This document shows positions 16,701 to 29,322 of a DNA stretch of 64,000 nt, in pieces. The notes beneath the pieces are model-generated. The model made no database searches, was not told the origin of the DNA, and saw nothing but the letters and a program-made list of their open reading frames with translations. The stretch lies in the NCBI RefSeq assembly GCF_056712565.1, contig NZ_CM160072.1, one strand, 5' to 3'. Within the stretch, counting starts at the first letter, position 1. Every line of letters starts with the position of its first letter. Made by a program: the position numbers and the translations under genes.

Positions 16701-19813
<3,113 letters not shown>

Positions 19814-19819
19814 TCACAC

Positions 19820-19849
19820 AACATACGAGCCGGACACATAGAGTGTAAA
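19820..19849 (-). promoter_or_regulatory. lacZYA promoter (-35 TTTACA, 18-bp spacer, -10 TATGTT)
   Basis: Sense strand tttacactctatgtgtccggctcgtatgtt; hexamers identical to lacP, three spacer substitutions versus K-12. Confidence 0.85.
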
Positions 19850-21181: not shown

Positions 21182-21721
21182 ATGGCAAAACTTACCTTAC
21201 AAGAGCAGTTGCTCAAAGCGGGACTAGTCACCAGCAAAAAAGCGGCGAAGGTGGAGAGAACGGCGAAAAAATCGCGCGTTCAGGCGCGTGAAGCTCGGGC
21301 TGCGGTAGAAGAAAATAAAAAGGCACAGCTTGAGCGTGATAAACAGCTTAGCGAACAGCAAAAACAAGCGGCGTTGGCGAAAGAATATAAAGCCCAGGTG
21401 AAGCAGCTCATTGAAATGAACCGAATCACCATTGCCAATGGCGATATTGGTTTTAACTTCACTGACGGCAATCTGATTAAGAAGATTTTTGTCGATAAGC
21501 TCACACAGGCGCAGTTGATTAATGGTCGTCTGGCGATTGCTCGCTTGTTGGTCGATAACAATAGCGAAGGTGAATACGCCATTATTCCCGCCAGCGTTGC
21601 CGATAAAATTGCTCAGCGTGATGCCAGCAGTATTGTGTTGCACAGCGCGCTCAGCGCCGAAGAGCAGGATGAAGACGATCCGTATGCCGACTTCAAAGTG
21701 CCTGATGATTTGATGTGGTAA
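21182..21721 (+). CDS. yaiL: DUF2058-family protein
   Basis: Start at MAKLTLQEQLLKAGL inside a TTG-initiated ORF; lysine/glutamine-rich charged protein, 179 aa. Confidence 0.75.
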   Translation: MAKLTLQEQLLKAGLVTSKKAAKVERTAKKSRVQAREARAAVEENKKAQLERDKQLSEQQKQAALAKEYKAQVKQLIEMNRITIANGDIGFNFTDGNLIKKIFVDKLTQAQLINGRLAIARLLVDNNSEGEYAIIPASVADKIAQRDASSIVLHSALSAEEQDEDDPYADFKVPDDLMW

Positions 21722-21729
21722 ACATAGAT

Positions 21730-21946
<217 letters not shown>

Positions 21947-22780
21947 TCAACGCATATTCAGTTTATTGGCGTGGTACGCAATATGCTCGCCAATAAAACT
22001 GGAGACAAAATAATAGCTGTGATCATAACCCTCGTGATAACGGATTAACGTCTTGATATTCATCTCCTGGCAGATCTTTTCAAGATTTGGAGTCCGCAGC
22101 TGTTCTGCGTAAAAATCATCACTCAATCCCTGATCAACCATGATTTCCGCAACGCGTTGACCTTGTGAAATAAGACTCACCGGGTCGTAATCCAACCAGG
22201 CATCTTTATTTTCACCAAGATATGCGGCAAAGGCTTGCTGTCCCCACGGTACTTGCGATGGGGAGACAATGGGCGAAAACGCCGAGACGCTGACATATTC
22301 ATCTGGGTTACGTAACGCCAGCACCAGCGCGCCCAGCCCGCCCATAGAATGACCTGAGATAGACTTTCTGGCCGTTGCTGGAAAATGATGCATCACTAAA
22401 TTCGGCAGCTCGTTGCGGATATAGTCATACATTTTGTAATGTTCATTCCACGGCGCTTGCGTCGCGTTCAGGTAAAACCCGGCACCTTGCCCGAGATCGT
22501 AACGGTCAGCATCTGCGACATGACTGCCTCGCGGACTGGTGTCCGGCGCAACAACAATAATGTTGTGCTCAGCCGCGTAACGCTGCATCCCCGATTTAGT
22601 AATGAAATTCTGCTCGTTGCAGGTCAGGCCTGAAAGCCAGTACAACACCGGCAATTTTTCATTCTCGGCTTTTGGTGGGAGATAGACGCCGACATTCATT
22701 TCACATTTCAGTGATTGGGAATAATGCCGATACACATTTTGCCAGCCGCCAAAGCTGGCATGTTTTTCAATGAGTTCCAT
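21947..22780 (-). CDS. frmB: S-formylglutathione hydrolase
   Basis: 277-aa esterase D family with GHSMGG nucleophile elbow. Confidence 0.9.
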   Translation of the reverse strand: MELIEKHASFGGWQNVYRHYSQSLKCEMNVGVYLPPKAENEKLPVLYWLSGLTCNEQNFITKSGMQRYAAEHNIIVVAPDTSPRGSHVADADRYDLGQGAGFYLNATQAPWNEHYKMYDYIRNELPNLVMHHFPATARKSISGHSMGGLGALVLALRNPDEYVSVSAFSPIVSPSQVPWGQQAFAAYLGENKDAWLDYDPVSLISQGQRVAEIMVDQGLSDDFYAEQLRTPNLEKICQEMNIKTLIRYHEGYDHSYYFVSSFIGEHIAYHANKLNMR

Positions 22781-22872
22781 CAGTCATTATCTCACGGTTA
22801 ATCCCCCGGACGGCTGCCCGGGGAGAGTATTAAGAACCCCATCTGAACTGGACGGGGTAAACCAGCGGGAAA

Positions 22873-24012
<1,140 letters not shown>

Positions 24013-24016
24013 TCAG

Positions 24017-24292
24017 CTATTTAAGATAGGCACGAACCAGTTCAATAGTGTCGTCAACGGATTGGCTGACTTCGCGGCTGTAGCAGTCATTTCGGTCAAA
24101 CGTTTCCCGGATATGGCTTTCAAGCACTTCTGCCATCAGTCCGTTAGCCGCGCCCCGAACGGCAGCGATCTGTTGGAGTATGGCACGGCATTCGGCATCA
24201 CCCTCCAGCGACCGTTCCAGAGCATCAATCTGCCCCCGAATACGACGAACTCGAGTAAGGACCTTTTTCTTCTCTTCCGGAGTACTGGGCAT
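24017..24292 (-). CDS. frmR: Formaldehyde-responsive repressor (CsoR/RcnR family)
   Basis: Start at [21 protein letters not shown]; 91 aa; track ORF has 7 extra N-terminal codons. Confidence 0.85.
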
Positions 24293-24318
24293 TTCGCACC
24301 TCATCATCTGCACGCAAT

Positions 24319-24367
24319 ATACTATAGGGGGGTATGCTATATGTCAATGCATACCCCCCTATAGTAT
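24319..24367 (-). promoter_or_regulatory. frmRAB operator: perfect 19-bp inverted repeat with G6/C6 tracts
   Basis: atactataggggggtatgc - 11 bp - gcatacccccctatagtat, 27 bp upstream of frmR start; G/C tract flanked by AT-rich inverted repeats is the RcnR/FrmR-type site architecture. Confidence 0.75.
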
Positions 24368-24480
24368 ATAACACTGGAGAATAAAATTTATCCGGTGAAT
24401 GTAGTCGGAAAACAAAGAGGAAAGGGGATAGGGGCTAATCGGCAGGGAAGGCCGCCCCGGATAGCGGGCGGCAGAAGGAA

Positions 24481-25254
24481 TCAGAATTTCCAGGTCAGAT
24501 GGGCTGCAAGTTGCAGACCGTTATAATCATCGGTTGGGGTGTCGTACCACACTTTACCTGCCGTCAACCCGAGATTAAGTTGCTCAGTCAGCGGTTGAAT
24601 ACGTTGCAAACTGATGCTCTTCATGCTGCCGTAGCGTGTTTCTGGCGTCCAGTCGTAGGTGTAAGCACCTGTTCCGCGGCTTAGCCATAGTTGCGTGTAA
24701 CCAGTGCCGCGCGGGTCATTCAGACGCACGGAAATCATATTGCTGTAACTACCACCTGCATCGCTGGAGTCATAATGGGTATAGCGATAGCTGGTGATCA
24801 CCGGGCCAGTATAGAGTGATATGCCACCTTGCCAGGCATCGACTTCGACATCATCGTAATATTTAGTGTAGCGATAACCGGTCGTGAAAAGCGTTTTTGG
24901 CAACAGGGCCAGGTTAATATCCTGACGAAAATCCTGGCGGGCAAAGACCGGCGTATTATCCGCAAAGGCAATACCCGTTCGGGTTGTCAGCCAGTTATTC
25001 CATTTGTACCAGACTGCACCCTGGCCGCGAGTGGCATTGAAATGTTCAGTTTCATAATCACGACGCCCCTGGGAAAGATTAAAAAGCAGCGTTGCGTTTT
25101 CAACTTTCGCCACCAGTTCAGCATACGCTAAATTACGGTTGCCATGATCGCCAGAATAATCGGTAAAATCGTAGCCCGCGGTAATGGAAGTTAACCCGGC
25201 ATAAACGGGTAATGCGCTAAAAATTGCCGCCGCTAATAACGTCCGTTTTATCAT
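24481..25254 (-). CDS. yaiO: Outer-membrane beta-barrel protein
   Basis: 257 aa; signal peptide MIKRTLLAAAIFSALPVYA; alternating aromatic/polar strands; C-terminal TWKF. Confidence 0.75.
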   Translation of the reverse strand: MIKRTLLAAAIFSALPVYAGLTSITAGYDFTDYSGDHGNRNLAYAELVAKVENATLLFNLSQGRRDYETEHFNATRGQGAVWYKWNNWLTTRTGIAFADNTPVFARQDFRQDINLALLPKTLFTTGYRYTKYYDDVEVDAWQGGISLYTGPVITSYRYTHYDSSDAGGSYSNMISVRLNDPRGTGYTQLWLSRGTGAYTYDWTPETRYGSMKSISLQRIQPLTEQLNLGLTAGKVWYDTPTDDYNGLQLAAHLTWKF

Positions 25255-25255
25255 T

Positions 25256-25966
25256 TTAATCTCCTGTACGGATAAGTTCTTGTCGGAGTGAATAAGTTCC
25301 GGTAGGTAAATTACGTTCTACAATCACGCGCGGGCCAAGTTGCGTGTTCGGGGAAATAATTCGCCCAGGCAAAATAATAACTTGTACGCCAAGGCGTGAA
25401 CGCTGCCCGATATAACAACCTAATTTATCGCATCCGGTAGCGATAATTCCATCTGGAGTTCGAACAGACACGGGCTGTTCATCCAGACGATGATTACTGG
25501 TTCGTACTTGTGCGCCCAAATATGCCTGGTTTGCAACTACCGAGTCGGCAATAAAGCATTGCGGACCAATCGTGGCTTCCGCTTCAATAACCGCATTTTT
25601 AATTTCGGTGGCAAAACCAATTCTTACGCCATTGCTGATTATTGTGCCAGGACGAATAAACGCATAATTACCTATTAGGCAGTTTGCGCCAATCACTACC
25701 GGACCCTGAATAACGGCACCGTGGCAAATACGGGTATTCGCGCCGATAACAACCTCACCGGCACTTTCATCAATAATCACCTGGTCTGCAATCTGAATAT
25801 TTTTCTCTTTAACATTAAGCTTCAGATAGTTTTTCAGTTCCTGTGACAGAAGGGTGGGAATAAGCGGTTGACACTTCCACCAGTGCGGAATAGCGGGTGG
25901 GTTTGTCGCGCTGAGGTTCGCGTCCAGTAAAAAAGGCAATAAGTCCATAAATAATCCAGATGGCAT
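25256..25966 (-). CDS. yaiX: Hexapeptide-repeat (left-handed beta-helix) acyl/acetyltransferase; start codon uncertain
   Basis: Repeated [LIV]-G-x-x-x-x hexapeptides (VIGANTRICHGAVIQGPVVIGANCLIGNYAFIRPGTIISNGVRIG); 5' end overlaps yaiP by up to 152 bp; stop is 1 bp from yaiO ATG. Confidence 0.6.
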   Translation of the reverse strand: MPSGLFMDLLPFLLDANLSATNPPAIPHWWKCQPLIPTLLSQELKNYLKLNVKEKNIQIADQVIIDESAGEVVIGANTRICHGAVIQGPVVIGANCLIGNYAFIRPGTIISNGVRIGFATEIKNAVIEAEATIGPQCFIADSVVANQAYLGAQVRTSNHRLDEQPVSVRTPDGIIATGCDKLGCYIGQRSRLGVQVIILPGRIISPNTQLGPRVIVERNLPTGTYSLRQELIRTGD

Positions 25967-27071
25967 AAGCTAATAATACATACACAACGGAAAGCGGTGC
26001 TAAAGGCACCAACAACCAGCAACGATGAAACCAGGCGCTAAATGCACCAATAACACAAACTACGCCGACCCAGATAAGCGGGAACATTGCCAACACCACA
26101 CCATGTGGCCCGGTGGTGATGAATTCATTAAACCAGGTAGTGAGATAAATACCAACGCCATAAAGCACAACCAACAGCATAGGAAATATACTGAAGATAC
26201 CGAAGCGGCTAAATAAAAGTCTTTTATGCAGGCGCATACAGACCGCGTAGCCCACAATCCAACGCCGCCAGCGGCGCCACTCCTCACGCGGACTGTTACA
26301 TTCCTGTGGGTATACGATGCAGCGATTCGCCTGCCGAATACGGTAGCCGTTTGCCACCAATGTCCAGGTGAGATCAAGGTCTTCGACTTTAGTACGATCC
26401 GAGAAACCGAACTTACGCAATACATCAGTACGGAACATCCCGCAGGCACCGCTGATGATAAACGGTGCGCCGCCCAGAAGCTGCTGTAGCGTGCGCTTCA
26501 TAACAATCATCGGCAACTTTACGGTCGCGCGGATGTGTAGCTGCTGTAGCGTGCGCTTCATAACAATCATCGGCAACTTTACGGTCGCGCGGATGTGTGG
26601 TAACAGACCCGCGCCTTTCAACGCAGTAGAGGGAATGCCGCCTACGGCATCAGCGCCACGCTCAATTTCCGCCAGCATATAGCCCATTCCGTCTTGATCG
26701 GGCGGAACATAGGTGTCGGCATCACTTAAAAAAACCTGATCGCAGGTGGCGTAATTGAGGCCATTCATCAGCGCACCACCTTTACCGGTATTTTTTTGCG
26801 TGACGGCAACAAAGCGGTCGCCCCATTTGCGTTTGACTTCCGCCATGACCGCTTCGGTATTGTCCATGGAGCCGTCGTTAACGCAAATTACCCGGCAAAA
26901 ATAAGGGTTACGCAGCAGATTATCCAGTGACTGCGCCAGACACGGGCCTTCGTTATAAGCAGGTATAATGGCGTCAATACAGCCTTTCTTTTGGCTGGGC
27001 TTACGCCTTAACGTACTCAGAAACCATAGCAATATTGCTACGGCCATACATATAAAGATCCAGGTTTTCAT
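25815..27071 (-). CDS. yaiP: Integral-membrane family-2 glycosyltransferase (synthase-like topology)
   Basis: 418 aa; N-terminal TM, CVNDGSMDNT and SDAD (DxD) motifs, EEWRRW (QxxRW-like), four or more C-terminal TM helices; contains a 20-aa tandem duplication. Confidence 0.75.
   Translation of the reverse strand: MKTWIFICMAVAILLWFLSTLRRKPSQKKGCIDAIIPAYNEGPCLAQSLDNLLRNPYFCRVICVNDGSMDNTEAVMAEVKRKWGDRFVAVTQKNTGKGGALMNGLNYATCDQVFLSDADTYVPPDQDGMGYMLAEIERGADAVGGIPSTALKGAGLLPHIRATVKLPMIVMKRTLQQLHIRATVKLPMIVMKRTLQQLLGGAPFIISGACGMFRTDVLRKFGFSDRTKVEDLDLTWTLVANGYRIRQANRCIVYPQECNSPREEWRRWRRWIVGYAVCMRLHKRLLFSRFGIFSIFPMLLVVLYGVGIYLTTWFNEFITTGPHGVVLAMFPLIWVGVVCVIGAFSAWFHRCWLLVPLAPLSVVYVLLAYAIWIIYGLIAFFTGREPQRDKPTRYSALVEVSTAYSHPSVTGTEKLSEA
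26479..26598. repeat. Perfect 60-bp tandem duplication (2 copies) inside yaiP
   Basis: agctgctgtagcgtgcgcttcataacaatcatcggcaactttacggtcgcgcggatgtgt at 26479-26538 repeated exactly at 26539-26598; encodes HIRATVKLPMIVMKRTLQQL twice in frame. Confidence 0.95.
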
Positions 27072-27080
27072 GCAATTTGC

Positions 27081-27767
27081 TCAAAGAATCATTTTATGAA
27101 TAACAAAACCTTCACCCAGATCGCTATTGACCTGTTGCCCGCGAAATTGAGCAACTGCACGCAGACGCTCCGGGCGCATATAATCTCGCTGGCTCTGACT
27201 TTTATGTTTTTTTAACGCAGTCAGTTTAAGAGAAAAATATTCTTCTTTCACGGATTCAAAAACCTGAGGCATAAATGAAAGCCAGGTACTTGGTGTTTCA
27301 TAGCCGAGAATTTGCGGAATAGCGCGACAGGCAACCATTGAGGCTTGATAGACTGCAAGATGATCCTGATGGCGGTCAGCATCATGCATGGTATATACAC
27401 GTATAATTTCAACATCAGAGGGAATTTGATTTTTTATGATGTTTTCCAGGGCAGAAATCATATCATTGAGCTGTAAATGAGCGCGGGTGTCAGCAAAATT
27501 AAGATGAATAGTTTGGTGGCACCCTAATATCTTTAGAGCGTTGCGTGATTCTTCGTGGCGATCGATTATTCCATCTACGCCAGAATTACCGGTAGTCATC
27601 ACTACGGTAGCAATATAAATTCCTTTTTGCGCAAGGCGAGCTAGCGATGCGCCACAGCCTAATTCTATATCGTCAGGATGCGCGCCAATGGCAAGGATAC
27701 CCTTTCTTTTATTTGCCGAAGAAAGGATCGCTGAATCTAAAACCTTATCCACTTTATGACACTCCAT
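27081..27767 (-). CDS. yaiS: PIG-L/LmbE-family de-N-acetylase
   Basis: 228 aa; LAIGAHPDDIELGCG and HQDH metal-binding motifs; stop is 9 bp from yaiP start. Confidence 0.75.
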   Translation of the reverse strand: MECHKVDKVLDSAILSSANKRKGILAIGAHPDDIELGCGASLARLAQKGIYIATVVMTTGNSGVDGIIDRHEESRNALKILGCHQTIHLNFADTRAHLQLNDMISALENIIKNQIPSDVEIIRVYTMHDADRHQDHLAVYQASMVACRAIPQILGYETPSTWLSFMPQVFESVKEEYFSLKLTALKKHKSQSQRDYMRPERLRAVAQFRGQQVNSDLGEGFVIHKMIL

Positions 27768-28359
27768 TTTATTTATTATACTACAAGCACAACGACGCCC
27801 CCAGAGACGTAACCTCTGACGCAGACAGATGCTAATTTTTAAGTGTTAAAAATAGCTGATAGCTGAAAAACAAGGGGCTGTCAGGTACGGGGGTAAGAGT
27901 GTGTAATCTTTTATGTAGTTCATATGTTAAGTGTTTGTGTGTTTGGTTTGTATGGTTATTTTATTTTATATATTGTATTTAAATGTGATTTAGTTTGTCA
28001 ATTAATTGCATATTAAAAATATGTTCTATGCACAAATATTGATTATATACATTATGTGAATACATTATGTGGTTGATTGAGAATGATACATTTATATATG
28101 CAATGTGAATATAATGGTTTCATTATATGTGTTGCTGTTAATAAAATAACAGACATTAGAACCTGCTTGTTTATGCATTAATAAAATGAAGTGCAGTAAT
28201 TTACTGAGTTATCAGAGTGGGCGTAATTGCATATTTAATCTTTCCTTTGCCGCTTTTTTGCTAAGAATAAAATCATCTGTACGATAACGACTAATTCTTT
28301 TAATGAATGTTTTTATTCCTGAATACTGCTCCCATAACAAGACGGGGGAGCAGACAATC

Positions 28360-29322
28360 ATGGTAATTTCATCGCGTAACACATTTCTTGCCGCACTGGC
28401 ATTCATCGCTTTTCAGGCGCAGGCGGTGAACGTCACCGTGGCGTATCAAACCTCCGCCGAACCGGCGAAAGTGGCTCAGGCCGACAACACCTTTGCTAAA
28501 GAAAGCGGAGCAACCGTGGACTGGCGTAAGTTTGACAGTGGAGCCAGCATCGTGCGGGCGCTGGCTTCGGGCGATGTGCAAATCGGCAACCTCGGTTCCA
28601 GCCCGTTAGCGGTTGCAACCAGCCAACAGGTGCCGATTGAAGTCTTCTTGCTGGCGTCAAAACTGGGTAACTCCGAAGCGCTGGTGGTAAAGAAAACTAT
28701 CAGTAAACCGGAAGACTTGATTGGTAAACGCATCGCCGTACCGTTTATCTCCACCACCCACTACAGCCTGCTGGCGGCGCTGAAACACTGGGGTATTAAA
28801 CCTGGGCAAGTTGAGATTGTGAACCTGCAGCCGCCCGCAATTATCGCCGCATGGCAGCGGGGAGATATTGATGGTGCTTATGTCTGGGCACCGGCGGTTA
28901 ACGCCCTGGAAAAAGATGGCAAGGTGCTGACCGATTCTGAACAGGTCGGGCAGTGGGGCGCGCCGACACTGGACGTCTGGGTCGTGCGGAAAGATTTTGC
29001 CGAGAAACATCCAGAGGTCGTGAAAGCGTTCGCTAAAAGCGCCATCGATGCTCAGCAACCGTACATTGCTAACCCAGACGCGTGGCTGAAACAGCCGGAA
29101 AACATCAGCAAACTGGCGCGGTTAAGCGGCGTGCCGGAAGGTGACGTTCCGGGGCTGGTGAAGGGAAATACCTATCTGACGCCGCAGCAACAAACGGCAG
29201 AACTGACCGGACCGGTGAACAAAGCGATCATCGACACCGCGCAGTTTTTGAAAGAGCAGGGCAAAGTCCCGGCTGTAGCGAATGATTACAGCCAGTACGT
29301 TACCTCGCGCTTCGTGCAATAA
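28360..29322 (+). CDS. tauA: Taurine ABC transporter periplasmic binding protein
   Basis: Start at MVISSRNTFLAALAFIAFQAQA (signal peptide); 320 aa; track ORF begins 19 codons upstream. Confidence 0.9.
   Translation: MVISSRNTFLAALAFIAFQAQAVNVTVAYQTSAEPAKVAQADNTFAKESGATVDWRKFDSGASIVRALASGDVQIGNLGSSPLAVATSQQVPIEVFLLASKLGNSEALVVKKTISKPEDLIGKRIAVPFISTTHYSLLAALKHWGIKPGQVEIVNLQPPAIIAAWQRGDIDGAYVWAPAVNALEKDGKVLTDSEQVGQWGAPTLDVWVVRKDFAEKHPEVVKAFAKSAIDAQQPYIANPDAWLKQPENISKLARLSGVPEGDVPGLVKGNTYLTPQQQTAELTGPVNKAIIDTAQFLKEQGKVPAVANDYSQYVTSRFVQ

Follow-up and report, generated by a model that had tools for sequence, protein, structure and literature searches.

A perfectly symmetric inverted repeat with two G6/C6 tracts lies just upstream of frmR, and the question it raises is what this palindrome does. 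Our analysis of the 64,000-nucleotide stretch of DNA that carries it (hereafter the window) leads us to conclude, with high confidence, that the palindrome is the operator-promoter of the frmRAB formaldehyde-detoxification operon, in which two inverted FrmR boxes are arranged around the core promoter.

The frmR-yaiO intergenic region and its palindrome

The window comes from Escherichia coli. Its positions 24250 to 24520 share 100% identity with ATCC 11775, the type strain, and find a match in 5,415 of the 5,426 complete E. coli genomes. Within this segment, the span from 24293 to 24480 corresponds exactly to the 188-bp intergenic region between frmR and yaiO, 53 bp of which are taken up by the palindrome. 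The genes and the parts of the palindrome are located as follows.

24481-25254, minus strand: yaiO (open reading frame list)
24017-24292, minus strand: frmR, 91 amino acid residues plus stop (open reading frame list, NCBIfam FrmR equivalog, RefSeq annotation of the identical sequence)
22873-23982, minus strand: frmA (open reading frame list)
21947-22780, minus strand: frmB (open reading frame list)
24317-24337: frmR-proximal arm, ATATACTATAGGGGGGTATGC, holding FrmR box 1
24319-24335: FrmR box 1, 17-mer read on the minus strand, ATACTATAGGGGGGTAT on the plus strand, with G6 at 24327-24332
24338-24348: asymmetric spacer, TATATGTCAAT, 11 nt, carrying the -35 hexamer
24349-24369: frmR-distal arm, GCATACCCCCCTATAGTATAT, holding FrmR box 2
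24351-24367, plus strand: FrmR box 2, ATACCCCCCTATAGTAT, with C6 at 24354-24359, directly upstream of the -35 hexamer

The identity of the adjoining gene was confirmed by a score of 189 bits against the NCBIfam equivalog NF008464 (cut-off of 133), and FrmA (adh_III_F_hyde), FrmB (fghA_ester_D) and YaiO likewise exceed their curated NCBIfam cut-offs. The order of the operon is frmR, then frmA and frmB, and it includes the gene for glutathione-dependent formaldehyde dehydrogenase, as expected downstream of an FrmR operator. frmR starts at the ATG at 24292 (minus strand) and its 91-residue product begins with Met-Pro-Ser; the GTG at 24313 proposed by the open reading frame finder was rejected because it would bury Pro2, which is the formaldehyde-reactive residue (Denby et al. 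2016; Osman et al. 2016, for the roles of Pro2 and Cys35). Both formaldehyde-sensing residues, Pro2 and Cys35 (...GDAEC35), are present in the translation, as are His60, Cys70, Lys10, Arg14, Arg16 and Arg17. frmR thus encodes the repressor that acts on the palindrome and is also the first gene of the operon under its control.

A repeat search delimited a perfect inverted repeat at 24317-24369, with 100% complementary arms of 21 nt and a spacer of 11 nt. The sequence-only reading had announced a perfect palindrome with 19-bp arms (24319-24337 and 24349-24367); its perfection stands, and its arms extend to 21 nt. The 11-bp spacing and the two G6/C6 tracts are as it described, and its distance of 27 bp to frmR agrees with the near end of the 19-nt arm, 24319, which falls at -27 from the ATG. 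Expressed as intervening nucleotides, 24 nt separate the ATG from the 21-nt arm and 26 nt from the 19-nt arm.

Both arms contain the 17-mer ATACCCCCCTATAGTAT, of the form ATAC-N9-GTAT, and the two boxes are inverted and 32 bp apart from start to start. With up to three mismatches allowed, this 17-mer occurs exactly twice in the 64-kb window, once per strand (expected count of 0.02), and two matches were reached in none of 100 shuffles. No further FrmR box was found in the window at this tolerance, and the loose ATAC-N9-GTAT pattern matches the two arms only. The palindrome is also the longest inverted repeat of the window among those with arms within 60 nt of each other, the runner-up being the lac operator at 19780-19826. 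By the definition of type I operators quoted by Denby et al., each site should comprise an uninterrupted G/C tract of 3-8 bp surrounded by A/T-rich inverted repeats, and we observed both properties: a G6 or C6 tract in each box, flanked by ATAC and GTAT. The family architecture that had been recognized from the letters is therefore borne out. Each box is a pseudo-palindrome, symmetric from the tract outward through ATA/TAT; for the outer flank ATACTATA, a good counterpart on the inner side is provided by TATGC alone.

Other repeats were noticed in the vicinity. Directly past the yaiO stop codon, a G+C-rich hairpin at 24450-24472 (GCCGCCC, 8-nt loop, GGGCGGC) with no adjoining T-run may be a weak yaiO terminator, separate from the operator. 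Downstream of frmB, a 101-bp unit with REP-like content (GCCTGATGCGACGC..., GCCGGATAAGGCG...) is present twice at 21731-21941, its copies being 90% alike. The glycosyltransferase gene yaiP carries at 26479-26598 a perfect 60-bp tandem duplication that yields an in-frame 20-residue repeat (HIRATVKLPMIVMKRTLQQL twice) in a protein of 418 amino acid residues; in 10 of 12 records sampled across the ranking, the alignment covers 141 bp instead of 201 bp, which corresponds to a single copy.

Promoter and FrmR-binding sites within the palindrome

A sigma-70 promoter scan of positions 24200-24600 returned a single match, TTGACA-17 nt-TAGTAT on the frmR strand, with 10 of 12 consensus positions. The promoter elements and their surroundings are listed below.

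24347-24342, minus strand: -35 hexamer TTGACA, perfect consensus, within the spacer (sigma-70 scan)
24324-24319, minus strand: -10 hexamer TAGTAT, within box 1 (sigma-70 scan)
24293-24316, minus strand: 5' leader of about 20 nt, with the Shine-Dalgarno sequence GAGGTG at 24302-24297 (sequence)
24370-24395: A/T-rich upstream flank that stays with the promoter (E. coli strain alignment)

From this match, the transcription start of frmRAB is predicted at about 24311-24314 (minus strand); in Denby et al. (2016, PMC5146963) the center of the repeat lies at -29 from the predicted start site. Upstream, the distal box stops 3 nt short of the -35 hexamer, and the proximal box covers most of the 17-nt spacer between -35 and -10 and includes the -10 hexamer. 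The spacer carrying the -35 hexamer is asymmetric and so gives a direction to an otherwise symmetric element. Since -35 and -10 both lie within the palindrome, bound FrmR should exclude RNA polymerase.

We propose that, without formaldehyde, disc-shaped tetramers of FrmR, which belongs to the CsoR/RcnR family, would occupy the boxes, probably with direct readout of the ATAC/GTAT flanks and recognition of the G/C tract through its shape. The combination of shape readout of the tract and base readout of the flanks is a published idea (Denby et al. 2016). Bound FrmR would keep RNA polymerase from the -10 hexamer, the spacer and the DNA upstream of -35, and would repress its own synthesis because frmR comes first in the operon. 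Formaldehyde cross-links Pro2 to Cys35 between FrmR subunits, whereupon FrmR leaves the DNA and frmR, frmA and frmB are transcribed. We infer which E. coli nucleotides FrmR would contact, that each box would hold one tetramer and that repression would operate by keeping polymerase out. In the literature searched, which did not extend to the Pfrm sort-seq study (Rohlhill 2017, PMC5569641), we found no nucleotide-level footprint or point-mutation map of the E. coli FrmR site.

This interpretation is supported by published binding data on the same locus. Denby et al. (2016, PMC5146963, Sci Rep 6:38879, Fig. 6a) depicted the inverted repeat of E. coli Pfrm as type I FrmR sites in tandem, in line with the double site suspected from the sequence. 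Using BLItz, they measured a Kd of about 220 nM for E. coli FrmR on MG1655 Pfrm DNA versus 3,600 nM for a control promoter, and they reported that formaldehyde dissociates the FrmR-Pfrm complex and that FrmR represses transcription in vitro. Their K-12 fragment and the window are identical at 74 of 76 positions: it is the same locus, with its large inverted repeat and its two ATAC/GTAT-flanked G/C-rich sites, and both 17-bp boxes, the spacer and the -35 and -10 hexamers are unchanged. The comparison with the K-12 operator that the sequence-only reading had suggested thus leaves one mismatch in the arms, at 24336.

A second line of support comes from Salmonella Typhimurium (Osman et al. 2015, 2016, J Biol Chem). 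The 33-bp oligonucleotide frmRAPro (TTCTGATAGTATACCCCCCTATAGTATATGGAG), which is bound by purified FrmR, holds the same 17-mer as each arm of the palindrome (17/17, or 19/19 with the flank, ATACCCCCCTATAGTATAT), another point in favor of the operator assignment. Two FrmR tetramers bind frmRAPro at about 1e-7 M, and formaldehyde weakens this binding by about 6.5-fold at 10 uM and by at least 70-fold at 20 uM. The flank that holds ATAC is needed, as binding was lost when ATAC was destroyed by changing GATAGTATA to GTTCAACA (Osman et al.). Unlike the E. coli palindrome, frmRAPro is a single C6 site in a near-perfect 8-bp inverted repeat (ATAGTATA / TATAGTAT), and Salmonella frmRA lacks both the second box and frmB. 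As the single Salmonella site already takes two tetramers, and as Denby et al. suggested that one tetramer using both of its faces might bridge the two E. coli sites, the stoichiometry on two boxes is uncertain, between independent tetramers and one bridging tetramer.

The palindrome can also be compared with the tandem sites of RcnR, a protein of the same family, in the rcnR-rcnA intergenic region (Iwig and Chivers 2009; Salmonella rcnRAPro, Osman 2016). These sites follow the same type I logic, with a G/C tract of 6-7 bp, short A/T-rich inverted repeats and two copies that each bind one tetramer. They differ in their motif (TACT-G6/7-N-AGTA, with the tract centered between 4-bp arms), in the distance between centers (19 bp versus about 32 bp for the FrmR boxes) and in their effectors, Ni(II)/Co(II) instead of formaldehyde.

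Experiments with engineered promoters bear on how much DNA is needed for repression. A 2024 study (PMC11127321) named ATACN9GTAT "the FrmR binding site in E. coli" and made the promoter J23100 repressible by FrmR by placing one box upstream of -35 and one in the spacer, although transplantation of the boxes succeeded in only one of two host promoters. In the same study, FrmR repression was reportedly lost when the E. coli frmR promoter was truncated so as to retain the two boxes without the upstream DNA. This loss hints that flanking DNA, from about 24370 onward, contributes to FrmR repression, as DNA wrapping does for RcnR. On both counts, the two boxes may not be sufficient. Alignment of E. 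coli strains indicates a loss of homology at about 24385 or at about 24395, the point from which the strains have different neighboring genes: the upstream gene is fbpC in O157:H7, tauA in RM14723 and yaiO in the window. The yaiO-side sequence is kept in 4,280 of 5,415 genomes, and about 21% have no yaiO-side sequence next to Pfrm. Homology among natural strains thus ends 16-26 bp upstream of the distal arm, so that any specific upstream requirement would be confined to that stretch.

Distribution of one-box and two-box promoters among species

We examined 80 loci encoding FrmR relatives with 52-100% identity, one genome per species, using a pattern in which the ATAC and GTAT flanks are fixed by definition. 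Within the 110 nt upstream of frmR (8.8 kb in all), ATAC-N9-GTAT was counted 83 times, distributed over 65 of the 80 loci, as against 3 times in the other 245 kb of these loci, an enrichment of about 770-fold upstream of the gene. This recurrence next to frmR across species further strengthens the operator reading. The tract itself varies among species (CCCCC, CTCCCA, GGGG, GTGGAG), as does its G/C polarity, and the G6/C6 runs are therefore typical rather than defining: the conserved recognition unit, as judged from these loci, is the 17-bp box and not the G6 tract as such.

A box at the proximal position is kept across three classes of Proteobacteria, and in most species the promoter has just one box, located between -35 and -10. 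In these promoters, of which Tatumella, Pasteurellaceae, Brucella/Ochrobactrum and Comamonadaceae provide examples, the box lies between a TTGACA-like -35 and the -10 hexamer, with its TATAGTAT end toward the gene. In Lysobacter and relatives (loci L038-L040, L057, L060 and L082), ATACTCCCCCCCACTATG reaches straight into the start codon inferred by tblastn, which means that the start has been placed wrongly or that operator and coding sequence adjoin each other.

The distal box is found in 17 of the 80 loci (13 distinct versions), 32-35 bp from the proximal box. These two-box loci belong to Escherichia, to a second type of frm cluster (Edwardsiella plasmid, Enterobacter, Morganella, Providencia, Serratia and Aeromonas) and to Deefgea. 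In all 13 distinct two-box promoters a TTGAC-like -35 sits 1-3 nt past the distal box (TTGACN in 10, TTGATT in 1 and TTGCAT in 2, the latter in two Deefgea loci). The two-box layout, with one box against the -35 and the other over the spacer and the -10, tracks promoter geometry. The second frm type, with FrmR proteins 84-90% identical, is probably mobile, and resembles the window in having two inverted ATAC-N9-GTAT boxes that form a perfect palindrome with arms of 18-21 nt around a TTGAC -35; its -10 hexamer is TATAGT. It differs in its tract (GTGGAG/CTCCAC instead of G6/C6), in its 17-nt spacer and in its box spacing of 34 bp start to start. We noted this palindrome at about -80 to -25 from frmR in an Edwardsiella anguillarum plasmid, Enterobacter sp. 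and Morganella psychrotolerans (L012, L014 and L022).

Strict helical phasing of the two boxes was considered and rejected. Exact ATAC-N9-GTAT pairs are spaced 32-35 bp apart, boxes of the Citrobacter/Klebsiella type 40 bp, and the difference between 32 and 34 bp arises because the -10 hexamer is TAGTAT or TATAGT; spacing thus follows the -10 hexamer in use, and promoter geometry suffices to account for it without cooperativity.

The prevalence of single-box promoters raises the alternative that FrmR works through the proximal box alone, the one between -35 and -10, the distal copy being auxiliary or dispensable and the symmetry resulting from duplication and homogenization and not from selection. 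One site does suffice for repression in Salmonella, and the two arms are slightly more alike within a locus (6.4 of 9 variable positions) than between loci (5.7), with a permutation p of about 0.003 that is not a real probability since the sequences are phylogenetically related and non-independent; this is a weak hint of concerted evolution of the arms. On the contrary, the distal box is intact in thousands of E. coli genomes and in 13 distinct two-box versions, where it always abuts the -35, its tract is rarely altered (5 of 80 metagenome contigs), and the synthetic promoter that was successfully repressed had both box positions (PMC11127321). The conservation of the distal box and its constant position against the -35 argue for its use, and we regard the sole operation of the proximal box as unlikely.

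A palindrome of this size could also act through nucleic-acid structure, either as a cruciform in supercoiled DNA or as an RNA hairpin that ends yaiO read-through into frmR. Its potential to form a hairpin is strong, with a fold of -21.5 kcal/mol as single-stranded DNA (z = -7.4), and yaiO does lie upstream of frmR on the same strand. However, the stem is not followed by a T-run, the upstream gene is not yaiO in many E. coli, and the single-box promoters of most species cannot form such a hairpin. An intrinsic terminator or RNA element was accordingly set aside, the terminator scan having made no call and Rfam having returned no bacterial RNA family, its only matches being sub-threshold eukaryotic miRNA hairpin models. 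Orientation of the boxes bears on the same point. They are inverted in 10 of the 13 two-box versions, and Erwinia endophytica (L020) has ATACTGGGATATAGTAT and ATACTGGTGTATAGTAT at -79 and -46 from frmR, in direct orientation around the -35. The palindromic arrangement is thus frequent without being compulsory, and this favors a pair of separate protein sites over a DNA or RNA structure. We give very little credence to a structural role, and retain two FrmR boxes around the promoter as the preferred interpretation.

Variation within E. coli and an inverted spacer

Of 5,135 matching E. coli records, 3,554 (about 69%) carry the 53-bp element at 100% identity, and 1,578 have one or two differences. 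Among metagenome contigs, the perfect allele accounts for 66 of 80 and the K-12 type for 9 of 80. The perfect palindrome is thus the majority allele of E. coli and the K-12 sequence a minority variant, in which T replaces G at 24336 (TATTC and not TATGC), leaving arms that pair perfectly over 19 nt before a mismatch at position 20 of 21; K-12 also differs in the leader, with a T at 24313. All six of the ordinary one-mismatch alleles sampled were of this K-12 type. Because the arms are perfect in other Escherichia species, the K-12 mismatch looks derived. The exact symmetry that had been put forward as an asset for binding studies is true of the window allele, and it is probably of no consequence, as 24336 lies just outside the conserved 17-bp box, which is unchanged in K-12.

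Tract variants are rare. Those of the proximal tract are G5, G7 and GGGAGG, and those of the distal tract are C5, CCTCCC, CTCCCC and CCCCTG (tract variants overall include loci L004, L085, L091, L092 and those among the metagenome loci L093-L172). Some of the variants in homopolymer length may be sequencing errors. As the proximal tract lies within the spacer between -35 and -10, changes in its length would also alter promoter spacing.

In strain FJ_Ec_21 (NZ_CP143627.1; L002 301-376), the center of the operator, window positions 24336-24350, is inverted relative to the K-12 allele, TATTC-TATATGTCAAT-GCATA having become TATGC-ATTGACATATA-GAATA. The consensus -35 and a 10/12 promoter match now face yaiO, and the frmR strand is left with a 9/12 match. 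Such an allele raises the alternative that the operator doubles as a minimal invertible promoter, in which an exchange between the arms, by recombination or template switching, turns the spacer around together with its -35 hexamer, silencing frmRAB, pointing an equally good promoter the other way and later restoring it. FJ_Ec_21 displays exactly this inversion of a K-12-type allele, with the 10/12 match changing strand, and if the event were reversible and recurrent it would amount to a recombinase-free on/off switch for formaldehyde detoxification. An invertible switch as a regular phenomenon was nevertheless rejected, given that the inverted allele is a singleton, with one full-length match among 5,426 complete E. 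coli genomes, and that metagenome contigs contain no inverted junction as opposed to 88 normal junctions in the control search. Inspection of the open reading frame list from 21500 to 28500 also showed no recombinase-like product near frmR. We take the FJ_Ec_21 allele for an assembly error or for an inversion that arose sporadically between the 19-bp inverted repeats, and the probability that we attach to a genuine switch is close to nil. The FrmR operator-promoter with a fixed direction is the reading that we retain.

Deregulation of the operon has been described in another context. A 2026 paper on formaldehyde-resistant urinary isolates explained resistance by mutations on the chromosome through which frmAB is deregulated and which it discussed as frmR mutations; the words promoter, intergenic and binding site are absent throughout that paper.

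The palindrome, its reading as tandem sites and the formaldehyde-reversible binding of FrmR were already known, having been published in 2015-2016, and the ATAC-N9-GTAT box is already in use for building biosensors. What our analysis adds is small: the perfect palindrome is the majority allele in E. coli, the double site is limited to some lineages, and the spacer is inverted in a single genome.
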